A stretch of DNA of 64,000 nt from a bacterium (GCA_963663405.2 CAXXSM010000110.1:1-64000), one strand, 5' to 3'; numbered from the stretch's first letter, positions 8,613-23,926 are shown. Numbers and translations are program-made. The notes: generated by a model from the letters alone, not told the origin.

Positions 8613-8743
8613 TACTAAACAAACAATATCCCCAACTTCACTATACAGAATCACAGAACAGTAATACTACTGAAAACAAATCAACACCATTCTATCATAA
8701 CAATCAAATCCACGTAAATGGTATGTTCTGTCAAACAGCGGCT

Positions 8744-10345
8744 CTAATCGTCCGATCCGTCGTATCGTACATTCAACCGTTCCAATTGATTCGACAAGGT
8801 TTGGTAATTATTAAAGCCTAACAATTTCGACGCTATAGTTTTCGAGCCGCGCGCTTCGGTCATCGCTCTCCGTAAGTAAATCCGTTGGATATCATCCAAC
8901 AACAGGGATAGTTTAAACCCATCGCCCAAGGGTTGGTCCAGCAGACTTCCTTGGAAACTCGGCATCTCCATGATGGCGGCGGCGAAATCGTTTTCCTTCA
9001 ACACCGAGCCTTCCGCCATCACCATCGCCTGTAAGATCACGTTATACAACTCTCGTATATTCCCGGGCCAGGGTTGTTCTTTGAGAAATTTTTTGGCTTT
9101 GTCAGAAAATTTTTTCTTTTTATACCCCGGTTCATCGGCGGTTGTGAATTGCTGATTGATTTCCTCTAAAAAATGTTGGGCCAGCAGGGGAATGTCGTCT
9201 CGCCGTTCCCGCAACGGAGGCAGTTTGATGGCGATCACCGCCAACCGGTAATACAGATCCTCTCGAAATTCACCATTCACCACCGCCTGCAATATATCTT
9301 TATTGGTCGCGGCGATAACCCGCACATCACTTTGGATCACTGCCTCGCCGCCGACGGGAGAAAATTCCCGGCGCCAGGGAGTCTGGAGATCGAGCGGCTG
9401 CAAAACGCGCAGCAGTTTCACTTGGAGTTCCGGCGCCAATTCCCCGATTTCATCTAAAAACAAGGTCCCGGTGTCCGCGGTTTTGAATGCGCCATCCTTA
9501 TCCTTGTGCGCGCCGGTAAACGCGCCTTTCACATGACCGAACAATTCCGATTCGAGTAAATCCTTGGGGATCGCTCCACAATTGATGGCGACAAAAGGAT
9601 TCTCTTTTCGATGACTGGCTTGATGAATCGCCCGGGCGAACAGTTCTTTCCCTGTGCCGCATTCTCCCAACAGAAGCACGGGCACATCACGCATGGCCGC
9701 TCTCTTCGCCCGTCCGGCCACATAACGTATGCTCTTGCTATTCCCCACAATACGTTGAAATCCTTCTATTTCCTGGGGACTTTTACTGGCCAGACGCTGC
9801 CAATACGCGTCCGGCTTCCGCAGCAGTTCCGGGACAAAATCCACCGCGAGATCAAACGGGATTTCGGTCTCCCAGTACCGGTCTCGATGCGTCTGATAAA
9901 ACGTGGCGGGATACTTGCTCTTACCCAACAGCACCCAGACAGCGGCCATCGCGGGCGTGCCGGGACTGAGATGGATGCACAATTCCGCATCGGCGTTCGG
10001 CCGTTCGTTCAGGACCGTCCCCAATTCCTGGTCAACCACGGTGAAAATCCCCTTGTAGTCCGTGGGATTGGCAATCTTCACGGGATGCGCGATCGCATTC
10101 GATCCAAGCCACCGGCAGAACTGGCCGGTCAATTTGGCGCCGCAGTTGCTCAATAAATGAATTGCATCGAACGAGACCTGATCCACCAAGACTTTGATGG
10201 GGCTTTGAATCTCATCCAATGGAGGACCGGGTGGACACGCGTCCAGCACGGCTTGTTGTTTCTTGGGCGGAAGTGTTTTGGCCATCCCCCGAAGGTCATT
10301 ATGACCGATCCAGACGAACAGAAGTTTTCGATGGTTTTTTTTCAT
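8744..10345 (-). CDS. Sigma54-dependent activator (bEBP) with RtcR/CARF-like N-terminal domain
   Basis: GECGTGKE Walker A, ESELFGHVKGAFTGA, LFLDEIG, FREDLYYRL, WPGNIREL and a C-terminal HTH. The N-terminal WIG..D and HLSPGTPAM motifs are typical of RtcR-like CARF domains. Confidence 0.92.
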   Translation of the reverse strand: MKKNHRKLLFVWIGHNDLRGMAKTLPPKKQQAVLDACPPGPPLDEIQSPIKVLVDQVSFDAIHLLSNCGAKLTGQFCRWLGSNAIAHPVKIANPTDYKGIFTVVDQELGTVLNERPNADAELCIHLSPGTPAMAAVWVLLGKSKYPATFYQTHRDRYWETEIPFDLAVDFVPELLRKPDAYWQRLASKSPQEIEGFQRIVGNSKSIRYVAGRAKRAAMRDVPVLLLGECGTGKELFARAIHQASHRKENPFVAINCGAIPKDLLESELFGHVKGAFTGAHKDKDGAFKTADTGTLFLDEIGELAPELQVKLLRVLQPLDLQTPWRREFSPVGGEAVIQSDVRVIAATNKDILQAVVNGEFREDLYYRLAVIAIKLPPLRERRDDIPLLAQHFLEEINQQFTTADEPGYKKKKFSDKAKKFLKEQPWPGNIRELYNVILQAMVMAEGSVLKENDFAAAIMEMPSFQGSLLDQPLGDGFKLSLLLDDIQRIYLRRAMTEARGSKTIASKLLGFNNYQTLSNQLERLNVRYDGSDD

Positions 10346-10527
10346 GATAGAACCAGATTTATATTTTTATAAATATTCTTATTCATCGGGCGGGTGTCTG
10401 TCTACCCTTCCGGCATTCGAAAATTATTGTGTTTCTGCACGAAAACATCAATATCACCTTTATCTAAAGGGAATTTTCTACATTCGATCCAGCGGCGCCG
10501 CCATCACCAGGACGACAGGCAAAGAGA

Positions 10528-10544
10528 TTGGCCTCTGTTTTGCA
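10528..10544 (+). promoter_or_regulatory. Sigma54 (-24/-12) promoter of the JAB-E2-E1 operon
   Basis: TTGGCCTCTGTTTTGCA (GG-N10-GC with TTGC), about 50 bp upstream of the JAB start and divergent from the bEBP. Confidence 0.75.
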
Positions 10545-10593
10545 AAATCACACGCGAAGAGGCACAAAACAATTTGTTTGCTGTCTTTAGCCT

Positions 10594-11661
10594 ATGATGG
10601 AAAGGATCCGAACCTTGAATCCAGCGCCGGTCAACAATATCAGTCATGTTCCCGCCATTTACGAGTCTGAACTGCGAGTGATGGGCGGTTTGGCCTTACG
10701 AGGCTATCCGTACGAATGCGGGGGCAATCTGTTTGGCTTTTATACACGGGATCGCTGTCCCGTGATCTCCCTGCTGACAGGCCCCGGCCCGAACGCCACG
10801 TGTGAACGTTTCCATTTCGCCCAGGATTATGCGTTCTTCCTGCGCGCCAACCAGTTCTTCCATGCGGAATTTGGAATCGAGTGGATTGGCGATTGGCATT
10901 CGCATCCCCATCCCGGCGCCAACGAGCCCAGCCGGGGCGATTTGAATCAGGTCATGACACTCACCCGCCGGAATCCCCAGATTGAGCGCTGGCTCGATAT
11001 TATCGTCAGTTTTGAACGGAACCGCGCTTATAACCGGTTCTTCCCCGCCAGCTTACACCCGGCGACTAACGCTGTGTCCATCAACGCGTTCCTGTATCCC
11101 GACCCACAACAGGGCCAGGCGTTACGAACGCCTCTCCGGGTCTTGCCAGGAATGAGCCCGTTGCGTTCGGCGCTGGTCTCCAGAAACTCTCTCCAGCTAT
11201 GCCATTCGAGTTCCAACGTTCCTCAGGCGCCCATGGAACGGATTCGCTGCGAATCGAACGCGGACACAACAGAGCGATTTCATCACAGAAGCGAAAAGAA
11301 TGATATCCTGGCGGCTCAAATACGTGAGCTTCCCGAAGCGGCGCAACAGTCGATCGAGATAAGGCGCGCGCCTGGCCTTCTGATCCTGACCATCCCCATT
11401 ACAGCCTCTTACATCGCGGTGATTGGTTTGAAGGAAAACAATCCCACCTCCATTCTCAGGATTCTTGTCAAAGACATGAGGACCGATGAAACGCGCGATC
11501 TCACCTCCGCGTATGGCGCGAACGGCCGTTCGATCCGGCTTGGGCCACTCTATGAACGGCTTCACGCCCAAGCGGCGCGCCAACACAACGTGGATACCTG
11601 GTCGAAACTGCGGCCGCTGATAACGAGGTTCTGGCGGCCGTGGAGCGCCGTGCAATCCTAA
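10594..11661 (+). CDS. JAB/MPN (JAMM) metallopeptidase with an uncharacterised C-terminal domain
   Basis: ECGGNLFG ... GPGPNA ... IGDWHSHPHPGANEPSRGD (E...HxH...SxxD intact). Confidence 0.88.
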   Translation: MMERIRTLNPAPVNNISHVPAIYESELRVMGGLALRGYPYECGGNLFGFYTRDRCPVISLLTGPGPNATCERFHFAQDYAFFLRANQFFHAEFGIEWIGDWHSHPHPGANEPSRGDLNQVMTLTRRNPQIERWLDIIVSFERNRAYNRFFPASLHPATNAVSINAFLYPDPQQGQALRTPLRVLPGMSPLRSALVSRNSLQLCHSSSNVPQAPMERIRCESNADTTERFHHRSEKNDILAAQIRELPEAAQQSIEIRRAPGLLILTIPITASYIAVIGLKENNPTSILRILVKDMRTDETRDLTSAYGANGRSIRLGPLYERLHAQAARQHNVDTWSKLRPLITRFWRPWSAVQS

Positions 11662-11718
11662 ATCCAATTCCCATTTGGGAAGGTACACCAAATGAACTTT
11701 GTAAAGGAGACCTAAACG

Positions 11719-12168
11719 ATGTGGACACAACAACAGAGAACGCGGTTGGCGATCGAAGAAAAATTACTGCAAAAATACATGCCCGATTTCAAGTTTTACG
11801 ACCGGACACAAAACACGTATATCGCCGGGATCGTCAACGGGCCCCAGGTAACGCAGGACTACACCGTCATGATCCCTCTCCCCCTGGATTTTCCCTTCAG
11901 TAAACCGAAGGTGTATATCATCCGACCCGAGATTCTTCGGCTTTTTGGCGGCCAAGATACTGTCAACTCCCTCTCCACATCCCACGATTTCCACACGTTG
12001 GAGAACGGGCCTAACGGCGTCGTCCAAATTTGTTATCTATCCCATTGGGACGCCTCGATCACCTGTGTCAAAGCGATTCTCATGGCCCGGTTATGGCTTG
12101 TGGCCTACGAACAGCATCTTCAGACAGGCGAACCGGTCGCGCGGTATCTCGGCAAGCCGGAATCGTGA
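11719..12168 (+). CDS. Prokaryotic E2/UBC-fold protein
   Basis: RLAIEEKLL helix, LPLDFPFSKPKVYI, H...NG..QICYL (Cys at the catalytic position), then WDASIT, matching the UBC pattern. Confidence 0.75.
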   Translation: MWTQQQRTRLAIEEKLLQKYMPDFKFYDRTQNTYIAGIVNGPQVTQDYTVMIPLPLDFPFSKPKVYIIRPEILRLFGGQDTVNSLSTSHDFHTLENGPNGVVQICYLSHWDASITCVKAILMARLWLVAYEQHLQTGEPVARYLGKPES

Positions 12169-12236
12169 CGACGAAACGATTGTGAATCCAAGACCATTGT
12201 TTACGATGGATCTTTACCCATGCAAAGGAGAACATC

Positions 12237-13730
12237 ATGTCAATGACGGAAGAAGAACGAGTGCGTCAGATTATGGAAAACCATGTCCGGGGAGATCAGA
12301 CCGGCGCCAAACTGGTCTGGAATCCGGAGACCAAGATGATCGAAACGATCGATCCAGCGGCTTCGAAGGATCCGAAACAACTGGATCAAAAACTGATCAT
12401 TGAACCGTCCGACATGGGGCATTTTGCGGAATCGAATCCCGCGCCTGTCATTGTCCTGTCCGCCGAGAATATGGCCGGGCATACCGGAGCCGGCTGCTTT
12501 CCACACGCGTTCCGTTGTCTCGATGAAGGAGACGCGTACTCCGATATTCACACGGAACAGGCGGGAACGGCCGTACAAGGCAGTGTCTGCCTGACCGCGT
12601 CAGACACGAATACGCCGGTCGACGAATGCGGACGGCCCCACGATCGAGTGCGTGTCATCTTGAACCGGGATTCCCTATCAAATCCGGCCGCTCTCGATCG
12701 ATCCAACTCCAATGGGAATGAGCGCCCACGGGGGTATGTATTACAGCGGGAAGGCTGGATCGAGGCGGATGTGCAATTCGCGCCGATCAAGGACGATCTC
12801 TACTCTCGAACGCGGGGCATCCTTGAAACCAGCGTCCTCGCGGATCAATGTGTGGCGGTGTTGGGCCTGGGATCGGGAGGCGCGCAAATCGCCTGGGAAT
12901 TGGGCAAATTGGGATTGCGGCAAATTCTCGTGGATGGAGACCGCCTGGAAATCCACAACGTGGTCCGTCACATCGGCGGGCTGTCCGATGTGGGGCGCTA
13001 TAAAACCAAAATCATGAAAGAGAGAATCCTGGATATCAATCCGTACGCCTCCCTTGAAACCTGGGAAATGATGATGGACGCCTCCACGCAGGATCTCCTG
13101 TTGGAAATCGTCGAAAAAAGCGATTTGGTGATTGGCGCTGTGGACGATCACGACGCCCGAATGCGGATTAACCGGGCGTGTGTGGAACTCAAAACCCCGT
13201 TGATCCTGGCGGGAGTCTTCCGGCGGGCGTATGGAGGCCAAGTTCTCTATGTCCGTCCCGGCGAGACGCCCTGTTACCAATGTTTCACGCAGGCTTTGCC
13301 CGATACGGTCTGCGATCGGGAAATCTCCAGTTCCCGGGCCGCGGAGGGCTTGGCGTACACCGACCGGCCGGCCGCCATTGAACCCGGTCTCTCGATCGAT
13401 ATCGCCCCGATCAGTCATATGGTCGAGAAACTGACCGTGCAGAATCTGCTGCAAGGGCGCCCCACCTCCCTGCGCTCCTTGGATGAGGATCTGACCGCGT
13501 CCTGGTTTCTTTGGCTCAACCGGCGGGAAGAAGACACGAGTTACGAACAACTGAAACCGCTGCAATGCGGCGTCAACGGTATGAGCATCCTGCGCTGGTA
13601 TGGCGTGGATCTCCCCCGCAATCCCGCCTGCCCCTGTTGCGGCGATTTCGAGCAATACATCGCCGGCAAAGAAGAACTCGTCCTCCACCCGGAAGACACC
13701 GCGGCGTTTGGAGAAAGGGAAGCGGAATGA
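12237..13730 (+). CDS. E1/ThiF-family adenylyltransferase with long N-terminal extension
   Basis: LYSRTRG, GLGSGG, DGDRLEIHNVVRH, GRYKT, AVDD, Zn motifs CYQC and CPCC. Confidence 0.9.
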   Translation: MSMTEEERVRQIMENHVRGDQTGAKLVWNPETKMIETIDPAASKDPKQLDQKLIIEPSDMGHFAESNPAPVIVLSAENMAGHTGAGCFPHAFRCLDEGDAYSDIHTEQAGTAVQGSVCLTASDTNTPVDECGRPHDRVRVILNRDSLSNPAALDRSNSNGNERPRGYVLQREGWIEADVQFAPIKDDLYSRTRGILETSVLADQCVAVLGLGSGGAQIAWELGKLGLRQILVDGDRLEIHNVVRHIGGLSDVGRYKTKIMKERILDINPYASLETWEMMMDASTQDLLLEIVEKSDLVIGAVDDHDARMRINRACVELKTPLILAGVFRRAYGGQVLYVRPGETPCYQCFTQALPDTVCDREISSSRAAEGLAYTDRPAAIEPGLSIDIAPISHMVEKLTVQNLLQGRPTSLRSLDEDLTASWFLWLNRREEDTSYEQLKPLQCGVNGMSILRWYGVDLPRNPACPCCGDFEQYIAGKEELVLHPEDTAAFGEREAE

Positions 13731-16495
13731 TGGAATCCGCCCAATTCACCTATCGCCTTGCTGAGATTCCCGACCGCTCCTACCCTCCTTTCTTCGTAAA
13801 GGCGGGTGGGGATGTCCGGTCCGCCGTCCAGGCGGATTGCGAACATCTCCTCCGGGCGCTGGCGGAATTTCCACCTGATTCGGTCTCCCTGTCGACGCGC
13901 TATCTTTTCAATCCCTCCCATAACGGTCAGACGCCTCAGGAACGGCTGAACATCTTTCTCTCAGCTCAGGCGTACAACGAGGACTACTCGGCCGCGCTCT
14001 CTCTGTTGCTCGATCGGGGGCCTCTGCGCCGGTTTTATCCCCTGTGCAAGGTAGAATCCATGCAAATCCCGTGGGACACGTATCAGGCGGTTTGTACGAT
14101 CGCACGCCGGCAAATCCTCCTTGAACCAACCGTCACGCCGGAATTCAATCCCAAAGCTCTGCCCGCCTATCTCATGATCCAATCGTTTCAACCCAATCCG
14201 ACCAATGACGAAATGCCGTTGGACAATTTTCTTGACCGGATTGAAGAACCGGTCCTGATTGAACGGCGCTTTGAACCGGCGGATAGTTCCCGCGAGCTGG
14301 CTCTTCACACCAGGTATCTTTCTCTGTTGCAGCGCGTCAACCGGACGTGGGATGATGAGGACGTAATCGGCGATCCGATCGGTTCCAGCCACGCGGGCGA
14401 ATGGCGGATGGCTTTAAAATCCCTCCAAAAGAAAGAACCGCTCGCTGATGACTGCCGCCGCCGTCAGCAGCGGTTCCACGAAACGCTTACGCAGCCTCAT
14501 CTGCGGTTCCAGATCCGGATTTTCGCGCGATCCCAAGCCCTGGCCCGTCTGCTGGGTTCGGTGATCGCCGAATCCGCTTTCCAGGAGGGGAGCTACCGGT
14601 TGCAGGTTACGGACACGGGCGAATCGGGTTGGGAAGAAACAGCTCAGAATGTGGATTGTCGCCCTGTTCCGCCTGTCCTGGATAGCAGAGAAAGCGGGAA
14701 TAACTCCCAGCTGGAGCTGTACCGGGAATTGGAGCGGCTCAACCATCTCGCTCCAGTGGATCAGTTAACCAGCGTTTTCCGCCTGCCTCTCGCCGGGAAC
14801 GCCTCCCCCAAAACGATCCGGAAGAACACCGATCCACCGGCGGAATGTCCTGACATTATCCTGGGGATCGACGAACAGACTGCCAACAGTCAAACCAGCG
14901 AACCTTGGAATCCTGTGTACCGGGGGATTTCCATCAAGAACCTCGCCAAACATCTCTTTATCGCGGGGATGCCCGGTTCAGGGAAAACCATCGCCATCAT
15001 CAATTTGCTGCTTCAACTCAGCAAACTGAAGATCCCGTTCATTGTGTTCGAGCCGGGAAAAGCGGAATACCGGCTGCTCAAGCGGCTTAAGAATCATCCC
15101 AACGCCCAGCTGCGTCAATTGGCGCAGGAACTGCGCGTCTATACGCCGGGCAATGAACGGATCTCTCCCTGGCGCCTGAATCCACTCCAGATTCCCCCGG
15201 GGATCTCAACCTATCAACACATCGAAAACCTTTCCACCTGTTTCAAAGCGGCCATGCCCCTCAGCGCCCCTTTGCCCTCTCTTTTAGAGGAAGCGTTAGA
15301 ACGGGTATATGAACTTAATCCGGATCCGGATCATCCACCCCGGATGGCGGATCTCCATCATGCGGCTGAACGTGTGTTAGCCGCGAAGGGATACTCCGCC
15401 GAAGTCCATTCCAATATCAGAGGCGGACTAGATACACGGCTGGGCGCGCTGACCCGGCGCGCGATGGGCCGGATCTTTCAATGTCCAAATGATAATGAGG
15501 CTATCAAACAGCTGTTGGAAGGATTCTCGTTGATTGAACTCGCGGCGCTGCCGCGGGATCACGCGTGCCTGGTAACCCTATTCAGCTTAATGCTCTTGCG
15601 GGAAACGATCGCTTCCATCCCCTATACCCACGAAGGAATCCGGATCGTGATTGTGTTGGAAGAAGCGCATAATATCGTAGCCCGGACAAATCCGGCCGCC
15701 GCTTCGGAAACGAACGCCGATCCCACAGCGTTCGCCTCGGAATTTGTTTGTAACATGCTGGCCGAATTACGAGCCCACGGTGTTGCGATCGTGATCGTGG
15801 ATCAACTCCCCTCCACGGTCGCCCCGCAAGTCGTCAAAAACACCGGATCTAAACTAGCGTTTCGCCAGGTCGACACCGCCGACCGGGAAGACCTTGGCGG
15901 GGCTATGTTGTTTGGACCCCTTGAACTGGAAGAGATCGCCCGTTTACGGCCCGGTGAAGCGTTCTTCATGACCGAGAATTACTTCGGCCCCCGGCGGATT
16001 GTAACGCCGAATCTCCAAGCGGAGTTCGATCTTCCAATCCCCCCCGCGGGCGACTCCCTCCATTCGTATCTCCGTGACGAGGCCTGGTTCATCGAAACGG
16101 CGGAGGCCAGGATGACAGCGGAATTGAAGCGTCTCAAGAATGCGATGGATGAATTTGACGAGTTCCGGACACAAATCGTTCAACAAACCAAGAAACTGTT
16201 GACGGATTATACGCGAATTCTCACCCCCTCCTCCCAGGATCAGGGGAAAGGATTGAGTCAGTGTGTTCGCAAAGCCCAAACGCTTCTTACCCGTCTTACG
16301 AAAGGTTTTGAGGATTTTCAACGCGGCGCGTATCGCCCCTTGCTGGGTGAGGAGCCAGGGGAATCTCTCGACAGCGGTCTCCACTCGCTCCGAAACAACG
16401 CCATTCATCGATTTGAAACTGTGATAGAACCGGATACCCAGTCGTGTCTAGGTATCCTGCGCAATCTACTGGAAAAATCCACTATTAACGAATGA
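13727..16495 (+). CDS. HerA/FtsK-like (DUF87) P-loop ATPase
   Basis: KHLFIAGMPGSGKT, VLEEAHN, ELRAHG, IVDQLPS, VVKNT. ATGA overlap with the E1 stop gives a start at 13727. Confidence 0.88.
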   Translation: MMESAQFTYRLAEIPDRSYPPFFVKAGGDVRSAVQADCEHLLRALAEFPPDSVSLSTRYLFNPSHNGQTPQERLNIFLSAQAYNEDYSAALSLLLDRGPLRRFYPLCKVESMQIPWDTYQAVCTIARRQILLEPTVTPEFNPKALPAYLMIQSFQPNPTNDEMPLDNFLDRIEEPVLIERRFEPADSSRELALHTRYLSLLQRVNRTWDDEDVIGDPIGSSHAGEWRMALKSLQKKEPLADDCRRRQQRFHETLTQPHLRFQIRIFARSQALARLLGSVIAESAFQEGSYRLQVTDTGESGWEETAQNVDCRPVPPVLDSRESGNNSQLELYRELERLNHLAPVDQLTSVFRLPLAGNASPKTIRKNTDPPAECPDIILGIDEQTANSQTSEPWNPVYRGISIKNLAKHLFIAGMPGSGKTIAIINLLLQLSKLKIPFIVFEPGKAEYRLLKRLKNHPNAQLRQLAQELRVYTPGNERISPWRLNPLQIPPGISTYQHIENLSTCFKAAMPLSAPLPSLLEEALERVYELNPDPDHPPRMADLHHAAERVLAAKGYSAEVHSNIRGGLDTRLGALTRRAMGRIFQCPNDNEAIKQLLEGFSLIELAALPRDHACLVTLFSLMLLRETIASIPYTHEGIRIVIVLEEAHNIVARTNPAAASETNADPTAFASEFVCNMLAELRAHGVAIVIVDQLPSTVAPQVVKNTGSKLAFRQVDTADREDLGGAMLFGPLELEEIARLRPGEAFFMTENYFGPRRIVTPNLQAEFDLPIPPAGDSLHSYLRDEAWFIETAEARMTAELKRLKNAMDEFDEFRTQIVQQTKKLLTDYTRILTPSSQDQGKGLSQCVRKAQTLLTRLTKGFEDFQRGAYRPLLGEEPGESLDSGLHSLRNNAIHRFETVIEPDTQSCLGILRNLLEKSTINE

Positions 16496-16513
16496 TATCA
16501 GGAGAAAAACAAA

Positions 16514-17026
16514 ATGAACAATCGAAGCGATATGCCAACCCGAATCGAAGTGACCGACACAGTCGACTTGCATCAGAATGAGATGAACGACAAAGGAGAA
16601 GAAATTGAATTGACAGTTTCCGACCTGGAATTGGAGCGTGAAACGCTGGAAGCGTTGGAACGGCGAGGCACGGCGGAAGGAACGGACGAGATCGAGCAGA
16701 ATATTGACACCGCGCAAGATGTGAGTGGCGGCGAATTCGAAGAGGAGAGCCACGAATTGGAGGAAGTCCATTCAGAGACGGAAGAACACGAGACGGATCT
16801 GAACGAACGCTCGGAAGCGGCCACGATGGATCAAACGAAAATAGCGGACGCTCAATCGGCAATCCATAGTGACAACGCGAACAGTGAATTGGAACGGGCC
16901 AGAGAGGCTGCGGAACAGGATATCGAGTTCCTGACCGAACACGAGCAACGCTCAGAGCAGGCCCGGCAGGAGAGCGAACGGCTCCACCAGGAACATGAAA
17001 ATCGCGCGAGCCAGGCAAGGAGATAA
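16514..17026 (+). CDS. Highly acidic all-helical/coiled-coil protein
   Basis: RBS AGGAG. E/D-rich heptad-like sequence inside the operon. Confidence 0.8.
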   Translation: MNNRSDMPTRIEVTDTVDLHQNEMNDKGEEIELTVSDLELERETLEALERRGTAEGTDEIEQNIDTAQDVSGGEFEEESHELEEVHSETEEHETDLNERSEAATMDQTKIADAQSAIHSDNANSELERAREAAEQDIEFLTEHEQRSEQARQESERLHQEHENRASQARR

Positions 17027-17030
17027 GACC

Positions 17031-17660
17031 ATGCGAAACAATCGCAATTCAACCGTCACAGTTTTAGGAACCGGCGCCGATTCTTCAACCGGCCCTTCAA
17101 ATGCGAATCCACACCAAGCGGGGCAAACCTTACCCCGCGTGGCGGGAAGCGTCAACCCGGATTTCACGGGGATCGAGAACCAATACGCCAGCGGGTATGA
17201 TATCCATTCCGTCATCCAGAGTTTACCTGGCAAATTCTCGCAATGCCTGCGTCTTGTAGAGAAAGAGATTCAGTATTGCAAGAACAACCTGCGAACGGTC
17301 GCCCAACACGAGGAGGAAATCAACAGTGACGACGCGAGAGAGCATTATTTCCACGCGGAATCGGATTTAGCCGCCCAATACGAACACTACCTTTCCCTGC
17401 GGAAAGATATATGTGAGCAAATTAAAGAAATCGATCGCTCTATTCAGGGCACGCTGATTGAATTGGGGGGATTCGTTGATTCGACGCCCTCTCTTGGACC
17501 GCCCTCTCCCCCCAGCGAATCCCCTCCCCCGGCGTCAATAACGGCGCCAAGAGAGCCCTCAAAAGAAATCGACACCCTTTCGGACGCCGCTATGCGGAAT
17601 CATGTCGCCGCTGCGTTTGGCATTGATCCATCCATCATGGACAAGAAAGAAAAGCCATGA
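17031..17660 (+). CDS. Coiled-coil protein with Pro-rich linker
   Basis: RBS AAGGAG before ATG 17031. Stop overlaps the next start (ATGA). Confidence 0.75.
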   Translation: MRNNRNSTVTVLGTGADSSTGPSNANPHQAGQTLPRVAGSVNPDFTGIENQYASGYDIHSVIQSLPGKFSQCLRLVEKEIQYCKNNLRTVAQHEEEINSDDAREHYFHAESDLAAQYEHYLSLRKDICEQIKEIDRSIQGTLIELGGFVDSTPSLGPPSPPSESPPPASITAPREPSKEIDTLSDAAMRNHVAAAFGIDPSIMDKKEKP

Positions 17661-19535
17661 ATGAGAAAAGTCTGGTTCATCCCCTCTGCCTTGGCGCGGG
17701 AGGCCCCCGGCCGGGGCTTCGGATTCTCTGGCCTGGCGCGGATTCACCCCGGATCGAGATCGAACTGCCGCTGGGTCATAGCGTCTATTCCATCGATGTG
17801 GACGGGGAGAGGGATCTCATCGCGATCGGAACGCGGGCGGGCCGTATTGAACTGTTTTCGTATCCAAACCATGAGAATGAATCCTGCGAGCGGCTTCATT
17901 CTCTCCTGCAAGGCGCGCCGGTGTTGCCGGTATGTGTCCTTCCCCATCAACGGATCTTATCGGCGGACACCACCGGGCGCGTCTTGCTGTGGCGTCCTTT
18001 CGATAATCCATCCTCTCCGGTCTCGCTTGATACGACGGGTGAATTGGTTGGATCGATCAACCGTCTGGATGAGACACACGCCGTGGGTCTCTCTTCGCAA
18101 GGGAAGATTCTGATATGGGAACTATCCACCGGCCGGCTCTTGCGAATCATATCCGGTCCCGAGCCGCCCAAACAGCTGGCGCTTGTCAACCTTGTGTCTT
18201 GGCCTTCGCCGCAGGCGCTCGTCTATCCAGCTGCGGATGGTTCCTTGGTCCACTGCAAACCAGAAGATTCCAGCGTTTGTGTCTGGGAAGCGCATCACGG
18301 GGAATTCTATGCCTGCCTCTGCGATGGGGAGTATCTCCATACGATTGGTCATAAAGACGGCCGTATGAAAACATGGGACGCTTCGGGGACTGTCATTCAC
18401 CAACGTCGGTGTCCAACCGGGATCGTCGCGGGAGAATTTCTGGTGGATGGGACAAACCGGCTGCTTCTCATCAATGATCAGGGCCACGCTATGATTTACG
18501 ACCTTCATGACGATGCCCTGCAGCCGGTTCAAAAGTTGGATGGGGAGGCCTACCGGAGCGTGGCCGGGCCTTCCCATTCCGTCCGCCAGGCGCTTGCCGC
18601 TCAATGGCGGGTATCCCGTTTCCAGCAGTTGAAAACCGAAATTCAGTCCAAGATGGATCTTAACCAAGTTGAAGGTTTGAACGCATTACATCAAGAACTG
18701 GTGGATTTAGGCTTCGAGACGGTCTCGTTGGCGTTCCGGGCGCGCCAGGCGGCGCAACGGCAGGATCCGATCGAAGAACTGAAAATACGGCGCCGTCTGA
18801 CGTCCCAATTGTCCAGCGAAGATCCACAGGCGTCTGACTCTCTTCGATGTTACGCCGATACGCTGGAAAGAACCTGGCGATTGCGGGAAGCCCGATCGGT
18901 CTATCAATCAATTGATAAGTCGAGAGATGGTTGCCAATTCCTTCCATGGCTTGACCGCGCCTGCGGCGCCATGGAAGGGGGACCTGTGGACGATCGAACC
19001 GGACATTCCATTCCCGCTGTTGATTGAAGCCGCAAACGCGCTGGAAGAGCCGTTTACAGGCCGGTGGCTGTTCAACAGTTCGAATCCGATCCCATTCCCC
19101 GAATCCACTCTCTCCGCCGCCGTTTTGGCCGAAAAATACGAACAAATCAAAGCGGATGATCAACAAGAGAATCTCCCCGGCGCGGAGCCTTGCAGGATGC
19201 AATGGATCGTGCGGAATACAATCCAGCCGTTCGAAGCCGTCATTTTCCATGATTCCATCCAACCGGAATCAGTGGAAATTCAACGAGCGCTCTTGCTGAT
19301 TCAAAATGAGTTTCAAATTCGGATCCAGCCGGTGGCTCTGTTTCACGCCGAGGGAATAGAGCCAGGCCGGTCTTGGCGCGCGCATAACGCTCATGTCCTT
19401 CGCGTGTATGAAAGCGTGAGTCAGCGCCAGGCCGAGGATTTCTGGTCCCCCAAAATCCGCCAGACGATTGGATTGGCTTTACGGCGGCTTCGAAACCTTT
19501 CCCTCTCATCCCAGCGGCAAGAAAGGATCGCATAG
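17657..19535 (+). CDS. WD40-repeat protein with helical C-terminal region; one frameshift near 18978
   Basis: WD-like blades (GKILIWEL, WEAHHGE...DGRMKTWD). ORFs 17657..19027 and 18912..19535 join if one G is removed from the G-run (MEGDLWTIEPD). Confidence 0.78.
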
Positions 19536-19648
19536 AATGACAATAAACTGCGCAACTCAATCCATCATAAGAAGAGAAAGCCCGGCGCCCATTTCCTGGT
19601 GAAAATGAACTCTATATTTCTGATTTCCCGGAGCGGCGAAAAGCGAGT

Positions 19649-21111
19649 TTGGATATGGAGCCCGGATTCCAACTCGATCGCTTTATCATCAAAAGACTCT
19701 TAGCCCACGGAAATTCCGCAAGCGTCTATCTCGCTAACGACCAAATCCTCGATAGCGATGTTACGATCAAAGTGGTTGACATTGGCTCCAACAGTTCTCC
19801 CAACGCCGCCATTCAGTTGCAGAGAGAACATCAGGCGTATCACCACATTCAAGACCACCGCCATGTCCTGCAAGCGTTTGATCTTCATTCCGTGACTTGG
19901 GGCGGAGCCGCGTTCCTGATTCTGTCCATGGAATACGCGGAGGGTGGAACGCTTCGGAATTGGTTGAACGAGCGCCGGGGTGATGAAGAGACCCGCTATT
20001 TTCAAGGCTTGGAATATTTCAAACAGATCTGCCAGGGAGTTGCGGCAAGTCACAACGCCGGCGTTCTCCACTTGGATCTCAAACCGGAGAATTGCCTCTG
20101 TGTGGAGGGTGTGTATAAAAGTGGGGGGACTATAGTTCCTCGGCGGGGTTTCTCAATCAACCGATGAGCCAAGCGCTGGTGAACGATGAGGCGATTTCAT
20201 CCCGCTGTTTTACGCCGGCGTATATGGCCCCGGAACAGTTTATCGCCATCGATCCCGGTGATTTGGATATCCGATCGGATCTCTATAGTCTGGGGGTGAT
20301 TTTATACGAACTCGCACATCCCCAATGCCGCCCGCCTTTCGCAGGCTCGTACGAGCGTCTTCGTGAATTACACACAAGCGTTTCTCCATTACTCTACCCC
20401 ATCGAACATCCCGATCTCGCCGCCATTATCCAGCGATGCCTGGAAAAAGATCCCGCCAAACGGTATCAACGCGTCGAAGAACTGATGCGCGATCTCGAAT
20501 GTGGATATCGTCATTCTGAAATGGAAGATCAAAGGAACGTAATGTGGCAAGACATCCTGACTCACATCGAACGAGGGCGCCTTTCCCCCGCGAGGCGCCT
20601 CTGCCAACTCATCCTTCAGGACGATCCTTCCTGGACGGACGCGCGGGAAATCCTTGACCAGATTCAAGAACGGTTTCAGCAGGCTCAATCAATCTATACC
20701 GCGATGGAACAGGGATTGGATCGGCTCAGTCTTCACGAATTGAACGCGCTGCTGAACGCCGCCGTCGAAATATTCCCTGAACATCCAGCGGGACAGACGG
20801 TTCAGATCCTGCTCGAACAAAAAACAGAGCGCTACAGGCAAGCAATGGAAGAAGGCCTTACGGCTGTGCTGCGGCATGAATGGGACGAAGCGTATTCGTG
20901 GTTTGAGAAAGCCGATCGATACAATCCAGGCGCGATCGAGATCGTGAAAGCCAAACGATTCGTCAACAACATCCAACAAACGATCGAACCTACACGCCGT
21001 CGAATCAATCTGTGTCTGGACAATGGGGATCACGATAGGGCGCTGAATTTGGCGCGAAGCGTAGACCACTATCTTGCGAAACAGATCCCCGCGCTTCCCT
21101 CCTCTCCATAA
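19649..21111 (+). CDS. Hanks-type Ser/Thr kinase with C-terminal TPR-like helices; frameshift near 20120-20130
   Basis: VTIK, MEYAEGGTL, HLDLKPEN, TPAYMAPEQ, SDLYSLGVILYEL, CLEKDPAKRY. Removing two homopolymer bases restores KVGDYS at the DFG position. Confidence 0.85.
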
Positions 21112-21333
21112 CGCTGATCGGTTCATTCCAACCAAGAGAAAAAGAGAAGACGACGATTGATCCTGATTCATTATGGTGTCATTCTCTCGATAGCGTTCTT
21201 GAGACGCAGTTTCTTCAGTATTTCGATGACATGAGAACTACTCATCTTCGTTACACGCTTGAAAGAAAGATTGTCCGAAAACATGCGTTCTCAAAGCCCC
21301 CGCAACAGGCCTAGAGATGAAATGAAAAGGAGC

Positions 21334-21705
21334 CTACGAAGACTCCCGAACAAACAGGAAAACCGGATCCATTCGTTCCGGACATTCGGCTACATACGCC
21401 AGGCGATTTAATTCCGCCTGGTCGAGACACTCATTTGCGTCAAGAAGGCTTGAGTCCTCTTGTTCTTCGGTTTCGTTCATCTTTCGGTGACTATCGCTTA
21501 CAATCCCGAATTCCTTCCGCAACTGTTCTTCCTGTTGGGGATTCGCTTTCGGGTAGATCGGGAAACATTCGAAGCAATTCCAGAATACGATATCCAGTTC
21601 AGCGTTGTACGCGGCTTGGAGTTCATTTCCACAAACACATCGTCTGGTAAACCGGACGCTACTTAGGCTTGATTGTTCTTCCTCAGATTTCATTGTGTTA
21701 TTCAT
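21334..21705 (-). CDS. Small hypothetical protein with CxC...CxxC
   Basis: Strong RBS AAGGAGGT. CVCG and CFEC motifs. Confidence 0.65.
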   Translation of the reverse strand: MNNTMKSEEEQSSLSSVRFTRRCVCGNELQAAYNAELDIVFWNCFECFPIYPKANPQQEEQLRKEFGIVSDSHRKMNETEEQEDSSLLDANECLDQAELNRLAYVAECPERMDPVFLFVRESS

Positions 21706-21777
21706 TTTCGTACCTCCTTACCACCAGTTGGTGGTTCTCTCCATTGCCGGAGAACCACCTTAATGAAAGCGGGATAG

Positions 21778-21877
21778 CGGGTGGCTGTGAGCGAATCCCT
21801 CGATAAATCTTTAGGCCGGAAGGCCGGCCCGCCTTGGCGGGAAAAGATTTACGTAAGGGATTTGCGTGGCCGCCCGC
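21778..21877 (+). other. Y-shaped hairpin element, copy 1 (structured RNA or ssDNA)
   Basis: Nested stems gcgggtggc/gccgcccgc, gcgaatccc/gggatttgc and taaatcttt/aaagattta, capped by two short hairpins (GGAA and CTTG loops). Confidence 0.7.
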
Positions 21878-22160
21878 GTGCAGCGAATCATGACAGCGAT
21901 ACTGCAACAGCTTGTTTTATGATTGTGGAATAAATTGGTCAAAAAAATGAAGAGATAATCTATGACTTGTAATGGTGATAAACGTTTGTTCTTTGAATGA
22001 ACGAATTAAAAGCAAATGTGAATTTTGTAGCGATTGCGATAGTCAGACAGATGATGTCTTGGAGGTTGAATGAGTAGACGATTCATTCCATTCAAGACTC
22101 CGTTGATTCTAGGCTGTGATCAAACCACGGCCATATACCAACTCGCGTAAAACGATAATA

Positions 22161-22220
22161 GCAGGGGGCGCGGGGGACGCGTCCCCCGGATTTTCCTGAG
22201 CTCGTCAGCGCGGAGCGAAA
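22161..22220. other. GC-rich inverted repeat, oriT/dso-like candidate
   Basis: GGGGGCGCGGGGGACGCGTCCCCCG hairpin in intergenic DNA at the edge of a skewed region. Function inferred only. Confidence 0.3.
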
Positions 22221-23085
22221 AACCATTTTCTCATTCAAACCAACGCAACCAACCGCGCCTCAAAATCCTGTTATCGGCTCCACAAACATTCCACAAAAAC
22301 AGACCAATTCTTTCTTCTCTCCTTGCATTCAAAATCTTGCGCAACTCACAAATCCATATTTCAATATTTTCTTCATCTTCCCCAACACAAAATCAACTCA
22401 CTTTCTCCCCATTCTAACACGCGTGATCTCACTCAACTATATCGAATTGTTTTTCCGTCTGCTGAACATCGCACCTTCATTCCCACAATCCCAACCGTCC
22501 CTTTACCAAAACCATTCTCCTCAGACAAAACCACCAATCCATCTCTGCCTATCACTATAACTTGAACTCATCCGAACTCTCGATCCCGCCAACAACCAAC
22601 GCAAGACAAAAACAAGAGAAGAAAATGAAAAGAACAAAATCCTCTATCTGTGAAATCCAAACGAAAAACTCTACTCCATTCTCAACCATTTTCTCTTCAC
22701 GCTACTCCACACAAAACCAATTCCCTTTTTACCGATCATAACAGGCTTGACATCTTCCTCTCCAAAAATCCAATAGAACTTCCGCTTGTTGAACACTCCT
22801 CGTCATCTCTGCAATCCCAACCGTTCCATTCTCAAAACCTATCGTTCCATTCTCATCAGGCAAACTCCCAGCCCGTCTCTAACCGAAAATTCAACTTGAT
22901 CTCTTCCACACTCTCGATCCTACCAACAACCAATCCATCTCGAAAACAGGAATTACACCGACAAATCCTCGATTCAATCCAAATCCCAACTATTCTCGAT
23001 CCAAATCCTCCTGACACTCACACGAAACAACAACCTGAAATAGGAAGCCAAAGAAACAACAACAAAAGAAAAAAAAGAAAGAAAT

Positions 23086-23400
23086 TCAATCCATGCAAAA
23101 CGTCATGAATTCCTGATCTCTGTACAACGAATCAAGGAGCGCAAGAGATTCTCGAAGTTGCAACCACTCTTCTTTGATCCGCTTATGTGTGTCTGTGTTA
23201 ATCCCATTGAAGGTCATTTCCATCGCCATCTTCATTTGATAGTAGGAATCGATATGTCGAACCAATGCCGGATGCCTTGCTGCGCTTCCCACCAATGACT
23301 GGGTTCTTCGTGATGTCCAATACAAATCACTCAAGTAGCGCAAGACGTCTCGGGTCTGTTCGGTGTCTTTCCATGTATTCATGGTTTTTGGGGTTTTCAT
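23086..23400 (-). CDS. Small helical hypothetical protein
   Basis: RBS GAGGT before ATG 23400 (MKTPKTMNTW...). Confidence 0.6.
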   Translation of the reverse strand: MKTPKTMNTWKDTEQTRDVLRYLSDLYWTSRRTQSLVGSAARHPALVRHIDSYYQMKMAMEMTFNGINTDTHKRIKEEWLQLRESLALLDSLYRDQEFMTFCMD

Positions 23401-23443
23401 TTTTGTTACCTCTGGAGAATGACTCTTTGGCCGTTCTTCCAAA

Positions 23444-23576
23444 ATTATCATTTTCTCATCATGGGGGGTCTTTAAGCGAATCCCTCGATAAACCTTTAGG
23501 CCCTTGGGCCGGCCCCGAAGGGGAAAAGGTTTACGTATGGGATTAGCGTGACCTCCTGTGATGAGAAAATGATAAT
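23444..23576 (+). other. Y-shaped hairpin element, copy 2
   Basis: Same 75-nt core (23476-23550) as copy 1 with compensatory changes, plus a 27-bp outer inverted repeat attatcattttctcatca.../...tgatgagaaaatgataat. Confidence 0.72.
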
Positions 23577-23926
23577 AGTCGTTTTAGGGACACGGGGCTT
23601 AAGTCGTGGAATATCAACGGGCTTCCCTGTCCGTAATTGGGGGTGGGTTTAGGACGCGCTTTCTTTTCGTTGGGGACAGGATTGAAGCGTTTGCGGATAA
23701 TCCGGTTAGGGTTTGGGATGAATGAGGACAAAAAAGATATAGATTGAGGACGATGATCCACTGGTAAGGGTCATGGATTTCAGGATTCCACGAAGGATTG
23801 GATACTTGAATCTTCCACTGCCGCGTGATGGGATTTCAGGATCGAGGCCCGGGTGATAATGGAACCATCATCCCGGTTTAAAATCGTTCCCCGTTCTCTT
23901 TATGGCCGGTCTCATCCGTATCCACG

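Follow-up and report, generated by a model that had tools for sequence, protein, structure and literature searches.

The 64,000 nt stretch of bacterial DNA analysed here (GCA_963663405.2, CAXXSM010000110.1:1-64000; referred to below as the window) carries, between positions 8744 and 21111, an operon for ubiquitin-type conjugation enzymes that consists of two separable modules and is not one indivisible eight-gene system. Module A (a JAB metallopeptidase, a stand-alone E2, a mini-protein and an E1) is a split Cap2/Cap3-like unit, and module B runs from a HerA-type ATPase through to a kinase. The mini-protein, which in the window is fused to the N-terminus of the E1, is conserved across the relatives of module A and is a candidate modifier that, judged from its sequence and predicted structure, is neither ubiquitin-shaped nor of the beta-grasp fold.

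Bacterial E1/E2/JAB pathways, namely those of type II cyclic-oligonucleotide-based antiphage signalling systems (CBASS), Bil and Bub, have come to light only recently, and they matter both for antiphage immunity and for the question of how ubiquitin signalling arose. What is new here is a widespread Cap2/Cap3-like module in split form with a constant, unannotated fourth member that is not ubiquitin-shaped. If the mini-protein is a tag, E1-E2 chemistry would require neither the beta-grasp fold nor a C-terminal Gly; otherwise, the mini-protein would be a new regulator of Cap2-type conjugation and may help with the question of what the CBASS cyclases are conjugated to. There is also a testable link between conjugation and a so far undescribed HerA/WD40/kinase/Lon module.

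Two modules that occur together and apart

Unless stated otherwise, the locus counts given here are based on 35 related genome loci that were gathered with an E1 profile. When these were searched with the window proteins using tblastn, JAB-E2-mini-protein-E1 followed by HerA was found in 18, and the operon through to the kinase in seven (L004, L005, L008, L009, L013, L018 and L032), which come from Phycisphaerae, Desulfobacteraceae, Desulfarculia, Victivallales and Thermodesulfobacteriota, so the genes do co-occur outside the window. Elsewhere, the operon continues past the kinase with genes for a protein of ~390 aa (c4a), a paralogous protein of ~235 aa (c4b) and a Lon-type protein of ~200 aa, though L009 has only c4a of the three, c4b and the Lon gene being absent from within the locus.

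Module A was found without HerA in 12 loci. At L021 it is followed by genes for a SMODS-type CD-NTase (a nucleotidyltransferase of the cGAS/DncV-like group) and a TIR-SAVED protein, at L012 by ThsB-like TIR and TIR genes, and at L023, the only actinobacterial locus scanned, the scanned genes downstream of E1 are metabolic. Among 19 metagenome loci of the L021 subfamily, SMODS follows E1 in all 14 that extend past E1. Module B, in turn, occurs on contig C64 of genome G022 as HerA, p170, p221, WD40, kinase, c4a, c4b and Lon, with unrelated BlaI/BlaR-like genes upstream and module A absent; contig C20 of genome G017 has both modules. Within the phylum, 10 of 35 genomes have HerA-type matches, and such a scattered distribution is typical of accessory systems. 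Hence, the single conjugation system that had been read from the window sequence (the original prediction) resolves into two units, one of which also keeps company with CD-NTase and TIR-SAVED or TIR genes and the other of which can stand without it.

A conserved mini-protein next to E1

Alignment of the E1 homologues revealed an N-terminal module of ~60 residues that is present in some and missing in others. In 12 related loci, this mini-protein is encoded by a separate open reading frame (ORF) of 57–82 aa between E2 and E1, and in others it is fused to E1. A hidden Markov model of it matched directly upstream of the E1 core in 27 of the 35 genome loci and, of the eight misses, four are contigs that start inside E1 (L003, L006, L016 and L020) and four are distant E1 relatives (L030 and L033–L035). 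All 19 metagenome loci of the second (L021) subfamily have the mini-protein as well, and it is N-terminal in at least 33 of the 120 E1 homologues listed. Among longer proteins that contain it, only ThiF fusions were found (12 of 12 matches), while a search at similar length recovered 75 stand-alone homologues, most of them exactly 60 aa.

Conservation runs up to an invariant Phe (...SSEDADMF, ...AEDMKAF, ...PSDMEHF) and then stops, and what follows is either 1–8 hypervariable residues, as in the 75 stand-alone homologues, or the E1 linker in the fusions. Two natural versions, at L032 and L069 (57 aa), end exactly at the Phe. Conservation that stops abruptly, a tail that varies, an enzyme as fusion partner and a dedicated peptidase are together the signature of a processed modifier precursor, which is the reading we prefer. 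The original prediction had seen no ubiquitin-like modifier in the operon and had supposed a non-canonical one; it was right in that no beta-grasp ubiquitin-like protein (Ubl) is visible, missed the conserved mini-protein at the E1 N-terminus, and its supposition now has a concrete candidate in E1 residues 1–63. It was also correct that no protein ends in Gly-Gly and that there is no CD-NTase, as judged from the ORFs of 8744–21111 with Pfam and PADLOC.

Modelled alone with AlphaFold2 (AF2), the mini-protein is predicted to form a helix, a beta-hairpin, a short helix and a terminal helix (alpha-beta-beta-alpha-alpha), with a predicted local distance difference test score (pLDDT) of 77. Foldseek gave 0 matches at E≤0.001, the best being a PB1 domain (E 0.22), and there was no match in Pfam. 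A beta-grasp fold hidden in either E1 or the mini-protein, for which a Foldseek check had been proposed, was rejected, as the AF2 secondary structure is not that of a beta-grasp and nothing significant was matched; the rejection holds for these two, and such a fold may still occur in p170, in p221, in the N-terminal region of HerA or in the C-terminal domains of JAB and of the WD40 protein.

When JAB and the mini-protein were co-folded, a score of 0.60 was obtained compared to 0.01 for the best of three controls, with a partner pLDDT of at least 64 and contact agreement between runs of at least 74 %. In the calibration set, 58 of 80 solved complexes and two of 110 mismatched pairs passed the mark, and scores of 0.60 or below include only seven of the 80 solved complexes together with both passing mismatches. 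The model thus gives weak support to a direct interaction of the two.

Enzymes of module A

The JAMM motif of JAB (E...HxH...S..D; E41, H102, H104, S113 and D116) is invariant in 11 orthologues, as is a second motif, Y168...G186-x-S188-P189-x-R191. In the E2, C105 (in 'QICYL'), S88-H89 and H92 are invariant in 14 sequences. No Pfam match was found for E2, even at E≤10. A profile search against the PDB gave 122 matches at E≤10, and the best 60 of the 122 are all E2 or RWD proteins, though the matches are weak (best E 0.003) and cover the N-terminal half. Hence, the UBC fold is likely for E2 and not proven.

The E1 gene, including the mini-protein module, spans 12237–13730 and encodes a single ThiF domain (residues 200–358). 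In the AF2 model (pLDDT 80.7), the N-domain at residues 71–182 is well defined (pLDDT ~90) and the crossover loop (residues 359–383) is disordered. The features of adenylation enzymes are conserved, namely a Rossmann nucleotide site (G210/G212), an Arg and an Asp (R244 and D303) and a Zn site made up of two CxxC pairs (C346/C349 and C465/C468). Among 82 sequences, these four Zn ligands are the only invariant or near-invariant Cys residues, and there is no conserved Cys in the crossover loop. In contrast, Tyr374 in this loop ('AYxDR') is invariant in 21 sequences and ≥90 % conserved in the 82. With its motifs intact and conserved, each of the three enzymes looks active. At least 564 E1 homologues were found at E≤0.001 among 8000 scored candidates, and they come from Planctomycetota, Desulfobacterota, Actinomycetota, Gammaproteobacteria and other groups.

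The structural matches of E1 in Foldseek include UBA5 (6h78, 2.5e-17), BubCD (9.1e-17) and Cap2 (7to3_A, 4.9e-15), and ThiF and MoeB were also matched. Among the matches listed, the alignment with Cap2 (436 columns) is exceeded in length only by those with BubCD (504–514 columns, rmsd ~20 Å), and we infer that the E1 N-domain corresponds to the linker domain of Cap2. MccB (2.5e-14 in Foldseek and 2.7e-18 in the profile search) and PaaA (1.2e-10) were found as well, and this raises the question of whether E1 might be a peptide-modifying adenylase of their kind, with the mini-protein as the ribosomal precursor peptide of a small product. A small gene adjoining a ThiF-like enzyme with an extra N-terminal domain, and the presence of a peptidase gene, would suit such a pathway. 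We nevertheless consider this very improbable, because a UBC-like E2 with an invariant Cys has no role in these pathways, the conservation and the predicted fold extend to all 57 residues of the mini-protein and are not limited to a core peptide, there is no exporter or immunity gene, and the neighbours are CD-NTase, TIR and HerA modules.

Proposed mechanism

Taking the mini-protein as a modifier precursor, we propose a composite conflict-type system in which JAB would trim the mini-protein, E1 would adenylate it and E2 would conjugate it via Cys105, a proposal that we consider as apt to be wrong as right. In the window, the RtcR-like CARF activator would switch on the sigma54 promoter. JAB would then free the mini-protein from E1, or trim its tail, at or next to Phe63, and E1 would adenylate the new C-terminus, possibly proceeding through an oxyester on Tyr374 as in Bub. 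The E2 would take over the mini-protein as a thioester on Cys105 and ligate it to a component of module B or to a protein of the invader, and JAB could reverse the mark. Module A would, in effect, be a portable regulator or tagger that serves different immune modules.

A broader proposal is more tentative, and we think it somewhat more apt to fail than to hold. The mini-protein (~57 residues) may represent a third kind of prokaryotic protein tag, after the beta-grasp Ubls and Pup, one that is trimmed by JAB to a C-terminal Phe, activated by a Tyr-bearing E1 that has no catalytic Cys and passed on by a Cys-type E2, and that acts as a portable currency for CBASS, TIR and HerA-Lon immune systems. 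In the HerA-Lon systems, the tag ligases, a JAMM peptidase, a ring ATPase and a Lon-type protease could then make up a machine that tags, unfolds and degrades, proteasome-like in its layout.

Tail motifs and a Cap2-like alternative

A number of observations weigh against a role as modifier. By the co-folding tool's own account, a 'weak' verdict is wrong in the majority of cases, except where the guess had been a likely one from the start. The mini-protein would end in Phe, or in Phe with one small residue, rather than in Gly, and the end motif is modelled by AF2 as a short helix (residues 57–64, pLDDT 61–80), whereas the tails of Ubls enter E1 sites in an extended form. The motif is, moreover, not confined to the mini-protein, as the C-terminus of the E1 itself repeats it (PEDTAAF491-GEREAE, window 13680–13727), in the form (S/T/P)-E-D-x-x-x-F with a small residue and a short tail after it, which is found in many homologues, and AF2 draws it as a helix here too. 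A strict pattern, [ED]Dxxx[FY] with a small residue, was found in 31 of 120 E1 tails compared to 19 of 1574 internal windows and 47 of 2400 shuffled tails, and looser forms occur in many more homologues. As it is also located at the E1 C-terminus, the motif may be a docking or pseudo-substrate element, rather than, or besides, a substrate for adenylation. The SMODS CD-NTases that adjoin module A keep 'KLFG' followed by 5–20 variable residues in 13 of 13 sequences listed, and this fits the known Cap2 mechanism without any modifier. For the members of this E1/E2/JAB/mini-protein family, adenylation, thioester and conjugate are all predicted steps. The window copy itself has frameshifts in the WD40 and kinase genes and is without c4a, c4b and the Lon gene (see below). 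Finally, rpoN was not found in the assembled source genome, which is 82 % complete; as each of 19 relatives from its family has rpoN, the gene of the source genome is probably unassembled.

Two further features of these tails were seen. At L012 the two copies of the motif co-vary, with 'EATRFA' in the mini-protein and 'DTARFGQ' in the E1 tail. The CD-NTase tails at L021:11204-12091 and at L057–L069, which have a conserved 'LW(R/K)KLFG' before the variable residues, would fit trimming by JAB ahead of conjugation.

The main alternative is, therefore, a Cap2-like system with no dedicated modifier, where E1 and E2 would conjugate the C-terminus of a partner, either p221 or the E1 tail in the window and the CD-NTase in the CBASS-linked relatives, and JAB would reverse this. 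The mini-protein would then serve as an additional subunit of E1, as a regulator that docks or acts as a pseudo-substrate, or as an acceptor. The nearest families are indeed those of type II CBASS models in PADLOC, the best defence-database matches being CBASS E2 (9.8e-10), 'E1-E2' (2.4e-25) and JAB (3.2e-14), and the long Foldseek alignment with Cap2 points the same way. Like type II CBASS with Cap2/Cap3 (family '6b', Iyer et al. 2006), module A has a ThiF-type E1, a UBC-like E2 and a Cap3-type JAB with an invariant JAMM motif, and no beta-grasp Ubl, and its sister subfamily lies directly upstream of CD-NTase and TIR-SAVED genes. The substrates, candidate ones in the case of module A, also resemble each other in ending with a hydrophobic and a small residue. 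In Cap2 systems the substrate that is adenylated and conjugated is the C-terminus of the cyclase, the remnant being 'FA' in the Enterobacter cloacae cGAS and the Vibrio cholerae protein ending in Gly (10.1101/2022.03.31.486616). In addition to the conserved SMODS ends and the motif shared by the E1 tails and the mini-protein, the p221 orthologues in systems with both modules end in hydrophobic-G-(P) and a variable tail in eight of 10 complete sequences, the window p221 (...AAAFG-IDPSIMDKKEKP) has an end of this type, and the single system with only module B is without the Gly.

We nevertheless regard the Cap2-like alternative as rather unlikely. It leaves unexplained why the mini-protein is found in every assessable locus whatever the neighbouring module, why its conservation ends sharply at the Phe with hypervariable tails after it, and why two natural versions stop at exactly this residue. 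Furthermore, the p221 motif is absent in L001 and L003, and the comparison with systems having only module B involves one locus.

Comparison with known systems

The original prediction had not recognized the architecture as a named system, and this stands. No system model in Pfam, PADLOC 2.0 or NCBIfam 20 fits the operon; PADLOC gave only generic matches for JAB, E2, E1, HerA and kinase, and in NCBIfam nothing was above the curated cut-off for the operon proteins. The architecture, including an RtcR/CARF protein with JAB/ThiF, was not found described in the full-text literature, a scope that takes in neither the supplementary tables on CBASS, Bil and Bub, which may list such operons, nor subscription papers (e.g. 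Burroughs 2009 on E1-like enzymes). It is not among types 6a–6e of Iyer et al. 2006.

Module A works most like Cap2/Cap3, yet it lacks defining features of each of Cap2/Cap3, Bub and Bil. Unlike type II CBASS, in which Cap2 is a single E2-E1 fusion, E1 and E2 are here the products of separate genes; the E1 is without the crossover-loop Cys that Cap2 has (C548; 10.1101/2022.03.31.486616), the conserved mini-protein is always present and, among the ORFs of 8744–21111, there is no CD-NTase/SMODS or nucleotide-activated effector, the partner being the HerA-WD40-kinase module.

In Bub, JAB releases a modifier that is fused to an enzyme, and an E1 with no catalytic Cys uses an invariant Tyr of its crossover loop (Y370) to form an oxyester (PMC11601596). 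Module A shares with Bub (6E/DUF6527) a homodimer-type E1 that resembles UBA5 and ThiF, BubCD being a top Foldseek match, a crossover loop with a conserved Tyr and no Cys and, as proposed here, a JAB that would cleave an enzyme-fused modifier. Y374 here and Y370 in BubCD may be equivalent in position. Module A differs in that the Bub Ubl has the beta-grasp fold, the Bub E2 is of the Ser type and the DUF6527 protease BubE is part of the pathway, while here the E2 has an invariant Cys105, the proteins scanned have no DUF6527 match in Pfam and the candidate modifier is not a beta-grasp protein.

Bil (BilABCD) likewise has separate E2, JAB and E1 genes and a small modifier gene, in an antiphage setting, but the E1 here has a single adenylation domain into which no Cys domain is inserted, and the only small conserved protein has no beta-grasp. 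UBA5, a minimal homodimeric E1 and the best structural match, resembles the window E1 also in having a short conserved motif in its C-terminal tail, and differs in its catalytic Cys (C250) and beta-grasp substrate. The tail motifs of UBA5 bind UFM1 and its E2.

For the tail of module B only, there is an analogy with CalpL-CalpT-CalpS, in which a Lon-type protease releases a sigma factor (10.1101/2024.05.08.593097). Both have a Lon-family protease gene beside genes for helix-turn-helix (HTH) or sigma-like proteins, but there is no sequence match to the Calp proteins and no SAVED domain, and the genes in question are absent from the window copy. Of the MADS models (PADLOC mad1-8), only those for the generic ATPase mad8 (1.6e-14) and kinase mad6 (1.2e-23) match, and no other mad model does, including that of the methyltransferase.

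Module B and the genes downstream

The features of the operon and its copies are listed in Table 1. The ORF map and family scans agree with the gene positions and order first assigned, and the set of JAB, E2, E1, HerA ATPase, WD40 and kinase proteins was identified correctly, with DUF87 above its cut-off. Of the eight co-oriented, partly overlapping genes then counted, the overlaps of stop and start codons are real, but the WD40 and kinase genes are broken and a conserved ORF at 19020–19535 had been missed.

Table 1. Features of the operon in the window and related copies in the source genome
Feature	Position	Strand	Basis or remark
Bacterial enhancer-binding protein (bEBP), RtcR-like (CARF, sigma54 AAA+ and HTH), 533 aa	8744..10345	-	Pfam Sigma54_activat 3.7e-66
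-24/-12 (sigma54-type) promoter element, GG-N10-GC box TGGCCTCTGTTTTGCA	10529..10544	+	~50 nt 5' of JAB start; from sequence
JAB, 355 aa, JAMM/JAB metallopeptidase at residues ~20-150; C-terminal domain conserved, its fold unknown	10594..11661	+	Prok-JAB 3e-08
E2, stand-alone, UBC-like, 149 aa, predicted catalytic Cys105	11719..12168	+	PADLOC CBASS-type E2 PDLC00858 9.8e-10
Mini-protein module, E1 residues 1-63, ...PSDMGHF63, fused to E1	12237..12425	+	Conserved upstream of E1 core in relatives
E1 core: linker 64-70, beta-rich N-domain 71-182, ThiF/UBA5-like adenylation domain	12426..13730	+	ThiF 8.6e-33
HerA/FtsK-type ATPase of 922 aa; family unknown for the N-terminal ~400 aa	13727..16495	+	DUF87 1e-05, 26.2 bits (cut-off 23.2)
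p170, acidic, probably coiled-coil, conserved after HerA	16514..17026	+	tblastn 30-53 % identity in 13 related loci
p221, low-complexity or coiled-coil protein	16995..17660	+	No Pfam/PADLOC family for the window protein
WD40 propeller with helical C-terminal domain	17657..19535	+	One gene in orthologues, split here
Ser/Thr kinase, C-terminal tetratricopeptide repeats (TPRs)	19537..21111	+	Pkinase matches split over two ORFs
C141 copy	Window 10830-23873		93.7 % identical over 13,066 nt; JAB 5'-truncated
C64 copy (source genome)	Window 8704-12260		95 % identical; ends at contig end
C1 copy			Divergent, 25-47 % aa identity; complete system with both modules, E1 split

The HerA-type ATPase has readable Walker A (GMPGSGKT) and Walker B (VLEEAH) motifs. 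It matches the PADLOC models mad8 (1.6e-14) and HerA (7.4e-10) and, below the cut-off, NCBIfam CedD (5.1e-14), and the PDB match to HerA is weak (0.0027). No family was found for p170 in Pfam or PADLOC, and a p221 orthologue, that in L005, gave only weak SMC-like matches in PADLOC (E ~2e-4). For the WD40 protein, a putative substrate adaptor in the original prediction, a profile built from 10 orthologues had 356 matches in the PDB (best 2.8e-16), and the orthologues are single ORFs of 621–707 aa that correspond to the window WD40 ORF together with ORF 19020–19535. The kinase matches Pkinase profile positions 4–132 in one ORF and 145–255 in the next. An N-terminal zinc ribbon (CxxC...CxxC), which is missing from the kinases of the window and C141, is found in the orthologues at L032:14211-15848, L008:17243-18856, L018:17242-18477 and L054:5533-9114. 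The last of these, the G022 kinase, is 1193 aa long and has double zinc ribbons as well as more TPRs.

Among the products of the genes that follow the kinase elsewhere, c4a and c4b are HTH-like proteins; c4a has an HTH-like motif ('GLSKATLSRFAGS'), though a c4a profile found nothing significant in the PDB and the HTH leads in the Atlas are weak (0.78–0.81 only); neither c4a nor c4b has a Pfam match. The ~200-aa protein (c9) is a Lon proteolytic domain with an invariant Ser104 ('GxSAD') and Lys148. Its PDB match to 1xhk (8.8e-09) is one of 33, nearly all of them Lon, and the Atlas leads agree. The Lon-like proteins of C1 (L038:844-2511(-)) and G022 (L054:2155-3831(-)) are longer (555–558 aa), with a C-terminal extension of ~350 aa of unknown family.

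Activator and promoter

The gene divergent from module A encodes a bEBP that was correctly likened to RtcR and CARF proteins. It has the CARF-AAA+-HTH architecture of RtcR, as the PADLOC RtcR_PspF2--CARF_AAA_HTH model matches end to end (2e-168, residues 7–526). The best NCBIfam match is also RtcR but, at 328 bits compared to the equivalog cut-off of 650 bits, the protein is RtcR-like and not RtcR. It also differs from RtcR in that the operon divergent from it is JAB-E2-E1 and not rtcBA.

The -24/-12 promoter, which had been called clean, is present as a box, though the strict pattern is by itself weak evidence, as it has four matches in the whole window compared to 0.95 expected, and three of 100 shuffles reach four. 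The element recurs in the C64 copy (L039) and, in similar form, upstream of JAB in L013; among the related loci covered, the window, the C64 copy and L013 are the only ones with a box matching the strict pattern at this location. Hence, the operon in the window is probably under a CARF-type sigma54 activator, as supposed, while such control is a feature of the lineage and not of the system. Scans of the bEBP-JAB intergenic region for inverted repeats as enhancer sites and for sigma70 promoters and terminators gave only chance-level results and were uninformative. The sole Rfam match is a c-di-GMP-I-GGC riboswitch variant (RF03167; 8534-8614 (-), 72 bits compared to 59, E 1.1e-15), which is upstream of, and was assigned to, a neighbouring gene for a 1093-aa fibre-like protein with a Peptidase_S74 domain.

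State of the window copy

The source genome (8.44 Mb in 170 contigs) contains at least four related copies, namely those in the window (contig C110), C141, C64 and C1. Four homopolymers in the window are each one base longer than in C141, with the extra base at 18977 (G), 19588 (C), 20120 (A) and 20123 (G), respectively. The extra G at 18977 splits the WD40 gene into 17657–19027 and the conserved ORF at 19020–19535. Those at 20120 and 20123 break the kinase gene, and the extra C at 19588 cuts off its N-terminus, leaving ORFs at 19649–20167 and 20164–21111. In C141, the WD40 and kinase ORFs are intact (625 and 546 aa). The window copy thus looks damaged and may be non-functional, and one explanation is that it is a decaying or mis-assembled duplicate of a truncated operon, so that there would be no working system at these coordinates. 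This would agree with the location of c4a, c4b and the Lon gene, which in the source genome are confined to C141, where they lie on the other strand at a distance of 4.7 kb, and to C1, and with damage to the other copies, namely frameshifts in JAB and E1 of C141 and in bEBP, JAB and E2 of C64, and a split E1 in C1.

We consider decay or mis-assembly improbable, since the six upstream genes are intact and L009 is also without c4b and the Lon gene; the missing genes may also act in trans. As rpoB and rpoC are uninterrupted, the assembly is not generally error-prone. The indels are in homopolymers within a stretch where the copies are 98–99.8 % identical, so the consensus may be in error at this repeat. 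In another assembly, a near-identical protein (P0001) keeps the small-E1 fusion in frame, which C141 does not.

In public sequencing runs, the single contig covering 18441–21100 matches C141, with 73 differences and four gaps compared to the 74 and four computed for C141, and over 17700–21100 (contigs only) pieces identical to the window were found only at 17897–18114 and 18222–18470. As these contigs represent the C141 paralog, they neither confirm nor refute the extra bases in the window. In one run (X2), over window positions 17897–18470, the window-identical contigs have a depth of ~3 and the paralog-like contigs one of 5–6.5, and the copies may differ in number or stem from different strains.

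The unit that is repeated, which extends from the bEBP gene through ~2.7 kb of non-coding DNA after the kinase, is represented by window 8704–23873, C141:21665-34705 and C64:15649-19212, with 91–99.8 % identity. It takes in a hairpin and a G-depleted region, and the homology with C141 ends at 23873, which suggests a duplicated or mobile block larger than the operon. An inversion in C141 that would explain the separation of c4a-c4b-Lon was considered and dropped, as the junctions did not fit. The segment between the truncated JAB gene and c4a-c4b-Lon (C141:34706-39445; L037:714-5420) encodes a DUF2357 protein (3.4e-11) and a 757-aa protein that has no family, and further on C141 encodes another DUF87 ATPase.

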